From NCBI GenBank assembly GCA_044425815.1, contig JAWXVA010000003.1:17429-81428 (forward strand): 64,000 nucleotides of DNA. The letters run 5' to 3'. Below are positions 19,219 through 24,570 of this stretch, one piece after another. The notes under the pieces are model-generated. The model was given only the letters and a program-made list of their open reading frames with translations, made no database searches and was not told the origin of the DNA. Numbering within the stretch: the stretch's first letter is position 1; every line of letters begins with the position of its first letter. This DNA comes from Eubacteriales bacterium (GTDB taxonomy: Bacteria > Bacillota > Clostridia > Lachnospirales > Lachnospiraceae). The position numbers and the translations under genes were made by a program.

Positions 19219-20622
19219 TTATACTGGATATGCACCGTTCTTTGTATCTGCAACTGTAGCATCTACTTTTGTTTTTTGTGCATCACGATATTTGAAGAAA
19301 TCTGTAGCAACTTGTGGGAATAATGCATAAGATAATACATCTTCCTCTTGTGTGCTATAAGCAGCCATTTCAGCTTTTAATGTATCAAGTTCTGCTGGTA
19401 ATGTATCAGCGAATCTACAAGTAATTGGTTCTAAATCTCCAATAACTTGTTTTTGAATCTCTGCATTAAATGGTTTAACAGTCTTACCATATTTTCCTGC
19501 AAATACATCTTTTGTTTCTTTTGTTGCCATCTTGTATCTTTCACCCATAAGCACGTTAAATACAGCTTGTGTTCCAACGATTTGCGAAGAAGGTGTAACA
19601 AGTGGGCATTCTCCAAGGTCTGCACGTACTCTTGGTACTTCTGCAAGCACTTCGTAATATTTATCTTCTGCTCCTTGTTCTTTTAATTGAGAAGTAAGGT
19701 TCGATAACATACCACCTGGTACTTGATATAATAACGTCTTGATATCAACACCCATGTTTTTAGGATTTAATAATCCAGATTCAAGCGCTTTGTCACGAAG
19801 TGGTCTGAAATAATCCGCGATTTCTGCTAGTAATGCTTGATCATATCCTGTATCAAATTTTGTACCCTTGAATGTTTCAACCATAACTTCTGTAGCTGGT
19901 TGTGATGTACCAAGCGCAAATGGTGACATCGCTGTATCCACTACGTCTACTCCAGCTTCAATTGCTTTCATATATGTCATAGAAGCAACACCTGATGTGT
20001 AGTGTGTGTGAAGTTGAATAGGGATATCTACTGCATCTTTTAATGCTTCTATCATCTCTGTTGCTTTATATGGAAGTAATAATCCAGCCATATCTTTCAA
20101 ACAAATTGAGTTTGCACCCATTTCTTCACATTCTTTTGCAATTCCTTGCCAATATTCTACCGTATAGGCATCTCCTAATGTATAAGATAAGGCAACTTGT
20201 GCATGTCCTTTTTCAGCATTCGTAGCTTTGACAGCTGTTTGTAAGTTTCTCATATCATTCAAACAGTCGAAAATACGAATAATATCCATTCCATTTGCCA
20301 CTGATTTTTGTACGAAATATTCTACAACATCATCAGCATATGGACGATATCCTAAGATATTTTGTCCACGGAATAACATTTGTAATTTTGTGTTTTTAAA
20401 TCCATCACGGAACTGACGTAATCTATCCCATGGATCTTCTTTTAAGAATCGAAGTGATGCATCAAATGTAGCTCCGCCCCAGCACTCTACTGAGTGGTAT
20501 CCTACTTTGTCCATTTTATCAATAATAGGAAGCATCTGTTCTGTAGTCATTCTTGTAGCAATCAATGATTGATGTGCATCACGAAGAATGGTCTCTGTTA
20601 ATTTAATTGGTTTTCTTTCCAT
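19219..20622 (-). CDS. oadA: Oxaloacetate decarboxylase alpha / pyruvate carboxyltransferase subunit, without a biotinyl domain
   Basis: LRDAHQSL.ATRM, ECWGGATFD, LKDMAG, HTH.T.G, PGGM.SNL, LVTPSSQIVG; no C-terminal MKM domain. Confidence 0.9.
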   Translation of the reverse strand: MERKPIKLTETILRDAHQSLIATRMTTEQMLPIIDKMDKVGYHSVECWGGATFDASLRFLKEDPWDRLRQFRDGFKNTKLQMLFRGQNILGYRPYADDVVEYFVQKSVANGMDIIRIFDCLNDMRNLQTAVKATNAEKGHAQVALSYTLGDAYTVEYWQGIAKECEEMGANSICLKDMAGLLLPYKATEMIEALKDAVDIPIQLHTHYTSGVASMTYMKAIEAGVDVVDTAMSPFALGTSQPATEVMVETFKGTKFDTGYDQALLAEIADYFRPLRDKALESGLLNPKNMGVDIKTLLYQVPGGMLSNLTSQLKEQGAEDKYYEVLAEVPRVRADLGECPLVTPSSQIVGTQAVFNVLMGERYKMATKETKDVFAGKYGKTVKPFNAEIQKQVIGDLEPITCRFADTLPAELDTLKAEMAAYSTQEEDVLSYALFPQVATDFFKYRDAQKTKVDATVADTKNGAYPV

Positions 20623-20666
20623 CTCTATAACATCTCCTTTTTCATTTAAAAATAGGTCTTATCTGA

Positions 20667-21815
20667 TTACACACCAAAGATAGCCATGAATGTTCCCGCT
20701 GCTACCGCCGTACCAATAACACCTGCTACGTTAGGTCCCATTGCATGCATAAGTAAGAAGTTGGTAGGATCCGCTTCCGCTCCAACCTTTTGTGATACTC
20801 TAGCTGCCATAGGTACAGCTGATACCCCTGCCGAACCAATAAGTGGATTGATTTTACCTCCAGTTACTTTACACATGATTTTACCAAATACAATACCTGA
20901 TGCTGTACCAAACATAAATGCTAATAGTCCAAGCACTACGATATAGATAGTTTCCATATTAATGAACGCTTCTGCACTTGTAGTAGCACCAACTGAAGTT
21001 CCTAATAAAATAACTACGATATACATCAAAGCATTCGAAGCAGTGTCCACTAATTGTCTACACACGCCTGATTCTTTGAATAAGTTACCTAGCATCAACA
21101 TACCTACCAGTGGAGCTGTTGATGGTAGAATCGAACAAACTACAATCGTAACAACGATAGGGAATAAAATCCGCTCTAATTTAGATACTGGTCTTAATTG
21201 TTCCATCTTAATTTTACGTTCTTCTTCTGTAGTAAGCGCCTTCATAATAGGTGGTTGAATAATCGGTACAAGTGACATATACGAATACGCTGCAACCGCA
21301 ATCGGTCCCATAAGTGCTGTTTGTCCTAATTTACCAGCAAGGAAGATAGAGGTTGGTCCATCTGCACCACCGATAATTGAAATAGCTGCTGCTGCTTTAT
21401 CCGAGAATCCCAAAGCCATCGCACCTAAATATGCTGCAAAAATACCAAATTGAGCTGCTGCACCTAACAAGAAACTTTTAGGATTCGCAATCAATGGTCC
21501 AAAGTCGGTCATCGCCCCAACACCTAAGAAAATAAGTGATGGAAGAATTGCCCACTCATCTAATAAATAAAAGTAATAAAGTAAACCGCCTACTCCATTC
21601 GCAGCTTCTTCTGTCGACATCATAATATCTGGATAGATATTAACTAATAACATACCAAATGCAATCGGTGTAAGAAGAAGTGGCTCAAAACCGTGTCTAA
21701 TCGCTAAATATAAGAAACCGCAAGCAACTGCAATCATTACTAGATTTCCTAAACTTAGATTAAAGAAGGCTGTTTGATGCAATAGATTGTCTAATGCATT
21801 TAAAATATAATCCAT
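20667..21815 (-). CDS. oadB: Na+-translocating decarboxylase beta subunit
   Basis: EPLLL.[57 protein letters not shown]. Confidence 0.95.
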   Translation of the reverse strand: [382 protein letters not shown]

Positions 21816-21837
21816 GTTAAAACCTCCATACTGTTTC

Positions 21838-22984: not shown

Positions 22985-23000
22985 TGGACGTCACCTCTCA

Positions 23001-24437
23001 TTAAACCGTGCCATGTTTTTTACTTGGACGATCTTCTCTTTTTGTGAATAACATTTCAAATGCACCAATTACATACTTACGTGTATCAACTGGATCAATA
23101 ATTGTATCCACATACCCTCTTCTAGCTGCTGATTCCACACTTGATTGAAGTGCCTTGTATTCTGCCGCTTTTTCTTTCATAGTTGCAGCATCTGCATCTG
23201 CATACATAATCTTAGCTGCCATATTCTCATCCATCATGCCAATACTAGCTGTTGGCCATGCGTATACCATATCAGCTCCAATTGCTTTACTATTCATAGT
23301 AATGTATGCACTTCCATAAGCTTTTCCAATTACAACATTTACTTTAGGTACTGTTGCATTTGCAAATGCGTATGTTAATTTTGCTGTTGTTTTTGCTAAT
23401 AATTTTTCCGAGCATTTTGTTGCTTTAAATCCATTTACGTTTGTTAATGTAAGGATTGGAATATTGAAAGCATCACAGAACGTAACGAACTGAGCAGCTT
23501 TTCTAGCACCTTTCGCAGATAATGAACCATCAAATTCTGCTACTACTTCTGCATTTTCATCGTACACTTTTGAACGGTTAGCTACCGCTCCAACAGTCAT
23601 ACCATTCAAACGAATAAATCCTGTAACCATATCTTTTGCAAATTCTTTTTTCGTCTCTACAAAGATTCCATTATCTGAAATAGTCGCAAGTGCTATCGCT
23701 GTATCTTCTGTTGCATTTTCGATACCTGTGCATGCACGATTTAAATCATCTAAGCACTCATCATATGCATCATTATCTTCGTTATTAGCTGGAAGAATCG
23801 TAACTAATGTACGCAATTGTGCAATAATTTCTTCTTCTGTTCCTGCTGCATCTACAAGTCCTGTTTCTTCACATTGGAATGTTGCAGAAGCTGTATTACA
23901 CTTAGAAACTTCATTTCCCTCAATTGCATTTGGTGCGTTAACAAACAATTTAGCTTTTTTCTCTTCCATAAATGTAAAGTCTGTAAGAGCTGGAACTACT
24001 GCTAATCCACCACCACACATACCAAAAATAGCTGTCAATTGTGGAATCACTCCTGATGCCAATGTTTGTTTCATGTACAATGTTCCAAAAGCATTAAGCG
24101 CATCTGTTGCTTCTTGTAATCTAAGTCCAGAACAATCAACTAATCCTATAACAGGTGCACCCATTTTCATTGCCATATCATAAATATTAACAATTTTTTT
24201 CGCATGCATTTCACCCATAGAACCTTGTAATACTGTAGCATCTTGGCTATATACATATACCAAATTGCCATCAATCACTCCGTAGCCAGTTATGACACCA
24301 TCTGCAGGAGTTGCTTTCTCTGTCATGTTAAAATCAGTACTTCTAGCTGTGATTGCACCACCAATTTCAACAAAACTCCCCTCATCAAGTAACTTAGTAA
24401 TTCTCTTACTCGCTGAGCTTGCTGTGTTGTTACTCAT
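23001..24437 (-). CDS. Acyl-CoA carboxyltransferase subunit (MmdA/PccB-like, divergent)
   Basis: RI..LLD.GSF.E, DGVITGYG.IDG, QD.TV.QGSMG, FCDAFNIP, IDP.DTR, KKHG; CoA-carboxyltransferase fold. Confidence 0.85.
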   Translation of the reverse strand: MSNNTASSASKRITKLLDEGSFVEIGGAITARSTDFNMTEKATPADGVITGYGVIDGNLVYVYSQDATVLQGSMGEMHAKKIVNIYDMAMKMGAPVIGLVDCSGLRLQEATDALNAFGTLYMKQTLASGVIPQLTAIFGMCGGGLAVVPALTDFTFMEEKKAKLFVNAPNAIEGNEVSKCNTASATFQCEETGLVDAAGTEEEIIAQLRTLVTILPANNEDNDAYDECLDDLNRACTGIENATEDTAIALATISDNGIFVETKKEFAKDMVTGFIRLNGMTVGAVANRSKVYDENAEVVAEFDGSLSAKGARKAAQFVTFCDAFNIPILTLTNVNGFKATKCSEKLLAKTTAKLTYAFANATVPKVNVVIGKAYGSAYITMNSKAIGADMVYAWPTASIGMMDENMAAKIMYADADAATMKEKAAEYKALQSSVESAARRGYVDTIIDPVDTRKYVIGAFEMLFTKREDRPSKKHGTV

Positions 24438-24570
24438 AGATCTTTCCTCCATTTTCTATATAATAAAAATTTAATAAATTTTATACCTATTTTAGTATAC
24501 TCTACCGCATTAAAGTTTTCAACAAATTTCTATGGAATTATTATATTTTTACATTCCTATTTCTGAAACA

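Follow-up and report, generated by a model that had tools for sequence, protein, structure and literature searches.

A 64,000-nt stretch of a Lachnospiraceae genome (assembly GCA_044425815.1, contig JAWXVA010000003.1; hereafter the window) carries an operon of five genes that encode an acyl-CoA carboxyltransferase (CT), an OadG-like membrane anchor, a free biotin carrier, the carboxybiotin decarboxylase OadB and a keto-acid carboxyltransferase, OadA, with no biotin domain of its own. We propose, with confidence that is about even, that this operon specifies an oxaloacetate decarboxylase (OAD) Na+ pump with a second carboxyltransferase on one carrier, such that carboxybiotin would be split between the pump and malonyl-CoA. 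Slightly short of even is our confidence in the wider proposal that, in Lachnospiraceae, the operon acts as a membrane oxaloacetate:acetyl-CoA transcarboxylase combined with a Na+ pump, and that it replaces the biotin carboxylase half of acetyl-CoA carboxylase (ACC) in the approximately one-third of genera that lack accB/accC, either through its own CT or through retained AccD/AccA.

Gene content, operon conservation, conserved residues of the pump and of OadA, and patterns of gene loss were observed directly; from these we infer physical assembly, the CT substrate and the direction of flux as follows. Together the five products would make up a single biotin enzyme in the membrane, belonging to the Na+-translocating decarboxylases and split into subunits in the manner of Mmd and Gcd. 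Oxaloacetate would be made from phosphoenolpyruvate (PEP) by a PEP carboxykinase (PEPCK)-like enzyme, and OadA would move CO2 from oxaloacetate onto the free biotin carrier, itself tethered through an invariant N-terminal anchor and the OadG-like subunit. Carboxybiotin could then meet either of two fates, namely decarboxylation at OadB, driving Na+ export, or passage of the carboxyl group by the CT to acetyl-CoA, yielding malonyl-CoA with no ATP spent. Such a complex might switch between Na+-pumping decarboxylation and carboxyl transfer, as an earlier prediction made from the window alone (the original prediction) had suggested. In the genome of the window the malonyl-CoA branch would be auxiliary, beside a normal ATP-dependent ACC; relatives that lack biotin carboxylase would draw carboxybiotin for fatty-acid synthesis chiefly from the operon.

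Fatty-acid synthesis is generally taken to begin, in all bacteria, with ATP-dependent ACC, itself a target of antibiotics. If the proposed transfer does occur in Lachnospiraceae, a family dominant in human and animal guts, one ATP would be saved per malonyl-CoA, lipid synthesis would be coupled directly both to the metabolism of PEP and oxaloacetate and to sodium cycling, and biotin carboxylase inhibitors would have no effect on the species concerned. It would also be the first case found in our literature searches of transcarboxylation as a physiological route to malonyl-CoA in bacteria, and the first Na+-decarboxylase found there with a biosynthetic branch. Current annotation scatters the operon under unrelated names ('acyl-CoA carboxylase subunit beta', 'oxaloacetate decarboxylase').

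Two carboxyltransferases, one carrier and one pump

Genes were identified by Pfam and NCBIfam profile searches of the predicted proteins, and all five parts named in the original prediction were recovered in this way on the minus strand. Relatives were collected by a pattern scan with one genome kept per species. Relatives of the CT were present in more than 571 species, the titled records being mostly from Lachnospiraceae; CT-bearing genera include Dorea, Faecalicatena, Blautia, Mediterraneibacter, Sporofaciens and Schaedlerella. Among the 80 loci kept for gene-order comparison, the order CT, OadG-like gene (G), carrier, OadB (B), OadA (A) was found in every one with a long enough contig, with identities of 72–82% for the CT, 78–89% for OadB and 81–92% for OadA. 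A CT only 56% identical stood in the same five-gene operon, followed as in the window by genes for an RpiR-type regulator, an HI0933-like protein and Cmk. The pairing of two carboxyltransferases with just one carrier and one OadB/OadG module, originally read from one locus, is thus a fixed-order operon across hundreds of species.

Distribution was examined in samples of one genome per genus (201 genera for the CT; 100 for OadA, accC, FabF and PEPCK; 61 for methylmalonyl-CoA mutase). Of the Lachnospiraceae genera sampled, 184 of 201 had the CT and 90 of 100 had OadA. Only three genomes had the CT without OadA; two of these are incomplete (84% and 61%), and in the third, a fragmented assembly of 97% completeness, the CT lies on a contig of 5 kb. 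OadA without the CT was seen in four genera of the 100-genus sample and in a fifth genome of the larger sample, with a plain A-G-carrier-B operon. That one carrier and one pump are common to both carboxyltransferases is a prediction well supported by this conserved synteny, and even on a conservative reading the operon would appear to be a near-universal energy-conserving module of Lachnospiraceae.

The beta subunit, anchor and carrier each showed the sequence characteristics of the Na+-translocating decarboxylase family (OAD/MMD/GCD), and the operon product is predicted to be a biotin-dependent member of that family that transports Na+. OadB scored 473 bits with TIGR01109 (cut-off 190.6) and aligned to Salmonella OadB (6iva, 376 bits) with conserved stretches of 13 and 20 residues in the ion-path helices; a loop of ~50 residues was absent, which makes it a short form. 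The beta subunit of methylmalonyl-CoA decarboxylase is likewise called a short form in the supplement of a study of Quinella (PMC9585023). A second, very short OAD_beta match elsewhere in the genome (C167:28092–28265; 32 bits, 114-aa frame) is probably a fragment.

The anchor exceeded the cut-offs of both PF04277 (27 bits) and TIGR01195 (37.2 bits vs 36.05), and is unusual in being a predicted lipoprotein (lipobox LAGC) with an ectodomain of ~130 aa; after the ectodomain come a transmembrane helix, an Ala/Pro linker and, at the C-terminus, a basic tail. Its ectodomain, N-terminal of the OAD_gamma helix, was weakly DUF3887-like (28 bits, below the cut-off), and anchors of relatives ranged from 100–116 aa, where the ectodomain is missing, up to 347 aa. 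In the carrier, a near-invariant N-terminus of 19 residues (MKNYTITVNGxxYxVxVEE) preceded a variable Ala/Pro linker and the biotinyl domain, in which the EAMKME motif was invariant in an alignment of 21 orthologues. This layout matches the 'anchor, linker, swinging domain' architecture known for GcdC (PMC7145394).

OadA scored above the cut-off of the equivalog model for biotin-less OadA (NF008985, PRK12331; 738.8 bits vs 718). Its structural matches were a PycB-type protein (5ks8_C, 490 bits), Vibrio OadA (2nx9, 484 bits) and the transcarboxylase 5S subunit (1rqb, 433 bits), and since it matched three enzyme types equally well, the direction of its reaction is not fixed by sequence. The stretches LRDAHQS, KDMAG and HTHYTSG were kept and aligned with V. 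cholerae OadA (2nx9). We take the LRDAHQS, KDMAG and HTH stretches to hold the metal and carbamyl-lysine residues of OadA. A complex prediction with CT, OadA and residues 1–45 of the carrier, each supplied as an alignment, scored 0.01 against a mark of 0.32, a result that counts neither for nor against assembly.

The best curated match of the CT was TIGR01117 (mmdA), at 434.6 bits against a cut-off of 998.8; it scored only 86 bits with GcdA of C. symbiosum, and 31–39 bits with the accD/accA equivalog models (cut-offs >300), and so is not AccD/AccA. It aligned over its full length with the beta subunit of propionyl-CoA carboxylase (PCC-beta, 1vrg; 369 bits), being ~35 residues short at the N-terminus and carrying an insertion of ~10 residues. 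This alignment bore out the altered motifs that had been noticed in the window, with DCSGLRLQEA in place of DSGGARIQEG, NVNGFKAT in place of DTPGYLPG and YGSAY in place of YGGAY. Across 81 orthologues the motifs read DC[AS]G[LFMI]RLQEA and G[KA][YF]GSAY, and the variants were likewise kept in 40 further genomes of the family, with G[ST]AY over the combined set. The canonical set was in the minority among 116 full-length CT representatives (clusters at 50% identity). In a tree of these, the CT of the window fell in a clade of 41 (support 0.989; median length 464 aa) whose members all had variant motifs, with no canonical member; in the wider clade, OadG-like and carrier genes followed the CT in all four sampled members with enough contig. 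The altered motifs are therefore not a sign of decay but a conserved mark of a separate clade of short CTs. The oxyanion holes of PccB and the transcarboxylase 12S subunit are built from backbone NH groups, and conserved small residues (Ala, Ser, Thr) beside retained Gly/Ala would be more in keeping with an active site that is specialised but working than with a dead one. Decay of the CT where fatty-acid synthesis is absent was ruled out, as 12 Lachnospiraceae without FabF had open CT frames with the motifs kept and minor variants. A substrate call from the residue after YG[GS]AY was set aside as non-diagnostic, because that residue is I, V, L or A here and I or V in characterised propionyl-CoA carboxylases.

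Malonyl-CoA supply in the genome and its relatives

The original prediction had pointed out that the window holds no biotin carboxylase, methylmalonyl-CoA mutase or epimerase, which is correct, and had called for a search of the genome for accABCD and the mutase. In this genome (2.96 Mb, 96% complete) the search returned a complete set of the former, in a fabD-fabG-fabF-accB-fabZ-accC-accD/A-fabK cluster on another contig (C12, where accD/A is a fusion) with accB, accC and accD/A all above curated cut-offs; the mutase was not found.

Among relatives, accC was absent in 39 of 100 sampled genera and FabF present in 76. Eighteen genera had FabF without accC, 11 of them represented by genomes at least 90% complete. 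Five such genomes, all 98–100% complete, were inspected: none contained a Biotin_carb_C domain (E ≤ 1e-3), which the same search found in 13 of 14 control genomes, and each had a single biotinyl domain genome-wide, located inside the oad operon beside the CT. Because this is the sole biotin carrier there, any maker of malonyl-CoA in these genomes must use it, and carboxybiotin could be formed there only by OadA from oxaloacetate, by the CT from a carboxy-acyl-CoA, or by OadB running in reverse. Three of the five retained AccD/AccA, in a fab cluster minus accB and accC. In the other two (G070 and G084) a genome-wide search for carboxyltransferases found no AccD/AccA, and since FabD/FabF are present and AccD/AccA and accB/accC absent, some CT must make malonyl-CoA in them. 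Together with five others, these two make seven accC-less genomes whose FabD-FabG-FabF-FabZ cluster has no acc genes. The accC-less fab loci were L102 (G028), L103 (G034), L104 (G093) and L107–L113, some of which keep accD/A while others have no acc genes. In a study of butyrivibrios, ACC subunits were predicted erratically (in 36–61 of 62 genomes) while FabD/F/G/Z/K were near-universal (Hackmann and Firkins, PMC4478896).

Transfer from oxaloacetate to acetyl-CoA, a reaction that the original prediction had offered as an example, is thus supported by genomes that have FabD/FabF, lack biotin carboxylase and carry their one biotin carrier in the operon. The support is indirect and comes from relatives; in the genome of the window itself the reaction is not needed. 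With this comparative backing, we regard oxaloacetate-to-acetyl-CoA transcarboxylation as plausible.

Several observations weigh against a malonyl-CoA branch. A complete ATP-dependent ACC in the genome of the window leaves an ATP-free route without need there. In 18 of the 22 sampled genera lacking both FabF and accC, the frame of the CT was open and its motifs were intact, and five near-complete CT-bearing genomes (G007, G023, G057, G060 and G089), which are probably fatty-acid auxotrophs, had no FabF and no real ketosynthase domain. Since the CT is kept without fatty-acid synthesis, malonyl-CoA supply is either not its sole role or the CT is structurally required. Genomes with FabF that lack both accC and the CT were scarce (~2 expected, 1 seen, 67% complete), and this scarcity is not statistically telling because the CT is in ~89% of genera. 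In the three ACC-reduced genomes, AccD/AccA, and not the CT of the operon, could be the acetyl-CoA carboxyltransferase, and G070 and G084 contain a second, canonical CT elsewhere. Both oxyanion-hole motifs of the operon CT carry a Gly-to-Ser/Ala change, and its substrate is not readable from sequence. Clostridium thermocellum presumably has a similar cluster, formed by Cthe_0701 and Cthe_0699. Oxaloacetate decarboxylase activity was not detected in that species despite Cthe_0701 (annotated as the decarboxylase) and Cthe_0699 (carboxyl transferase) (PMC8303734, PMC3039559).

The canonical-scoring carboxyltransferase of G070 (L105, C9) and G084 (L106, C52) is 538 aa long and lies within a glycan-biosynthesis cluster with genes for MptE-like, UDP-galactopyranose mutase, DegT aminotransferase and FdtA-like proteins.

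Alternative roles and pathway context

The CT might instead decarboxylate a carboxylated acyl-CoA (methylmalonyl-, malonyl- or other) and feed the carrier and OadB that it shares with OadA, making the complex a Na+ pump for two substrates. We consider this unlikely, if by no means negligible. The best curated match of the CT is mmdA, the pump parts are all intact, and retention of the CT in genera without fatty-acid synthesis would be explained; the order CT-G-carrier-B is also the mmdA-D-C-B order of the Veillonella and Propionigenium operons. Methylmalonyl-CoA, however, has no known supply, since methylmalonyl-CoA mutase (PF01642) had no match in the genome of the window or in any of 61 genera and the epimerase (TIGR03081) had none in the genome of the window. 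The lack of mutase and epimerase also places the CT outside the succinate-to-propionate pathway despite its mmdA-like best match, so a propionate-type role is unlikely. Decarboxylation of ACC-made malonyl-CoA would be a futile cycle, the CT lies far below the mmdA cut-off (434 vs 998.8 bits), and genomes with FabF and no biotin carboxylase would be left without a source of malonyl-CoA.

Quite unlikely, in our estimate, is that the CT has lost catalysis (or nearly so) and serves as an oligomeric core for OadA and the carrier, in the manner of the 12S hexamer, in a complex that is a plain OAD Na+ pump. The changes in both oxyanion-hole motifs would be accounted for, as would retention of the CT in genera without fatty-acid synthesis; the CT occurs without OadA in three fragmented or incomplete assemblies only, while OadA stands alone in A-G-carrier-B operons. 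Against this, the changed positions are strongly conserved and restricted to small residues (Ala, Ser, Thr), a better fit to a working site, and G070 and G084 need some CT for malonyl-CoA.

The supply of oxaloacetate bears both on the proposed transcarboxylation and on an anaplerotic alternative. No PEP carboxylase, full-length pyruvate carboxylase or canonical PckA was found in the genome of the window, which had raised the possibility that the operon is its only source of oxaloacetate. That reading was dropped because a conserved PEPCK-like protein is mutually exclusive with PckA across genera. This protein of 563 aa (C187:18232–19920; L088:1204–2895) reached none of the curated PEPCK cut-offs (its best score was 123 bits against 369). 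It was present in 34 of 100 Lachnospiraceae genera, 71–84% conserved, and canonical PckA in 57; the two were almost mutually exclusive, occurring together in one genus only and jointly covering 90 of the 100. The PEPCK-like protein is probably a non-orthologous replacement of PckA, and supply of oxaloacetate to the operon by one or the other is plausible. A citrate-fermentation context was also dropped, as the citrate lyase alpha subunit (CitF) was not found in the genome.

Full-length pyruvate carboxylase occurred in 6 of 17 genera without the CT and in 5 of 184 with it (Fisher p = 5e-5, for related genomes that are not independent), an enrichment that hints at an anaplerotic link. It is nonetheless very unlikely that the operon is a stand-in for pyruvate carboxylase that converts pyruvate to oxaloacetate with carboxybiotin obtained from malonyl-CoA through the CT or from Na+-driven reversal of OadB (in vitro reversal of these pumps was reportedly described by Dimroth and Hilpert in 1984): this enrichment and the lack of pyruvate carboxylase and PEP carboxylase in its own genome speak for it, but a source of oxaloacetate already exists in the 90 genera with PckA or the PEPCK-like protein, its own included, and biotin-carboxylase-less genomes have no ATP-dependent malonyl-CoA donor.

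Layout of the locus and comparison with known systems

The five genes, separated by gaps of 16–44 nt, form a single predicted transcription unit on the minus strand between 24617 and 19152 (Table 1). The longest CT open reading frame spans 24452..23001; translation probably begins at the ATG at 24437, which follows a GGAGG site internal to that frame. For the carrier, the start was placed at the ATG at 22200, after AGGAGG, giving 121 aa. An Rfam scan of 17900–25300 gave no match (E ≤ 0.1), and therefore no known riboswitch or leader is present in that interval.

Table 1. Features of the operon and its borders, as positions in the 64,000-nt window.
Feature	Position	Strand	Basis
Terminator-like hairpin ending the upstream unit (small BspA-type LRR gene)	24572..24617	-	Sequence scan
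Two sigma-70-like promoter matches 5' of the CT gene	24494..24567	-	10/12 each, consensus matches only
CT, 478 aa, 12S/MmdA/PCC-beta fold, short variant-motif clade	23001..24437	-	PF01039, 366 bits
OadG/MmdD/GcdD-like membrane anchor, 255 aa	22217..22984	-	PF04277, 72 bits, residues 154-232
Free biotin carrier, MmdC/GcdC/1.3S type, 121 aa	21838..22200	-	PF00364, 61 bits
OadB-type carboxybiotin decarboxylase / Na+ channel (predicted), short form, 382 aa	20667..21815	-	PF03977, 504 bits
OadA/5S/PycB-type oxaloacetate-pyruvate carboxyltransferase, no biotin domain, 467 aa	19219..20622	-	NF008985
Terminator-like hairpin, 35 nt past the oadA stop codon	19152..19184	-	Sequence scan

Upstream lie a B12 operon and a POT transporter gene, and downstream the RpiR, HI0933-like and cmk genes; these neighbours give no clue to a pathway. 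A 139-aa open reading frame with BspA-type leucine-rich repeats (24637–25056, minus strand) separates the B12/POT operon from the oad operon and is followed by a terminator-like hairpin of its own. The RpiR-type regulator (HTH_6 and SIS domains) is at 18097–19029 on the minus strand, with the HI0933-like flavoprotein gene and cmk further on, down to 16161. Roughly half the related loci have the regulator gene 3' of oadA, and the full trio is present beside the 56%-identical relative (L091). A regulator of this type senses sugar phosphates, and it may control the adjoining operon.

No biochemical study of this operon in Lachnospiraceae was found in literature searches, and comparison was made with four kinds of known or proposed system. 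The split OAD Na+ pump of Enterococcus faecalis consists of OadA, OadB, the carrier OadD and OadH. The operon resembles it in its biotin-less OadA, separate small carrier, OadB pump and small membrane anchor, and one sampled Lachnospiraceae genus has exactly these parts, as A-G-carrier-B. In contrast to the E. faecalis pump, the Lachnospiraceae operon begins with an acyl-CoA-type CT, its anchor bears a lipoprotein ectodomain, and no CitF was found. With Mmd (MmdABCDE; Veillonella, Propionigenium) and Gcd (GcdABCD; PMC7145394) it shares a CT, an anchor, a free carrier and a short beta subunit, in the order CT-anchor-carrier-beta. It differs from Mmd in the low scores of the CT (434.6 vs 998.8 bits), carrier (NF047903, 78 vs 200) and anchor (NF047902, 27 vs 150), and from both in the appended oadA, the mutase and epimerase not being found, and the weak match to GcdA.

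A hybrid of OadA with MmdB/C/D has been proposed, speculatively, for rumen Quinella (PMC9585023, Supplementary Note 14). As in that proposal, a biotin-less OadA would work with carrier, beta and delta subunits taken from an acyl-CoA decarboxylase; Quinella, however, has a full propionate pathway, with OadB and OAD gamma inferred to be missing, whereas in Lachnospiraceae a single operon encodes both carboxyltransferases and a propionate pathway is absent.

The three parts of the Propionibacterium transcarboxylase (12S, 5S and 1.3S) also have counterparts in the operon, namely an acyl-CoA CT, a keto-acid CT and a biotin carrier. The transcarboxylase of Entamoeba is a single fused chain. Oxaloacetate-to-acetyl-CoA transcarboxylation is the function of the Entamoeba enzyme (PMC8136499), and the P. 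shermanii transcarboxylase accepts acetyl-CoA too, as a side activity (PMC8085960). Unlike the Lachnospiraceae operon, both of these systems are soluble and have no Na+ pump; OadA scored 545 bits with the 5S model NF008984 against a cut-off of 827, and the CT lacks the canonical GGARIQEG, PGF.PG and YGGAY motifs. Overall, the operon falls outside the definitions of Mmd and of the 12S/5S transcarboxylase, and inside those of the Na+-translocating decarboxylases and of biotin-less OadA.

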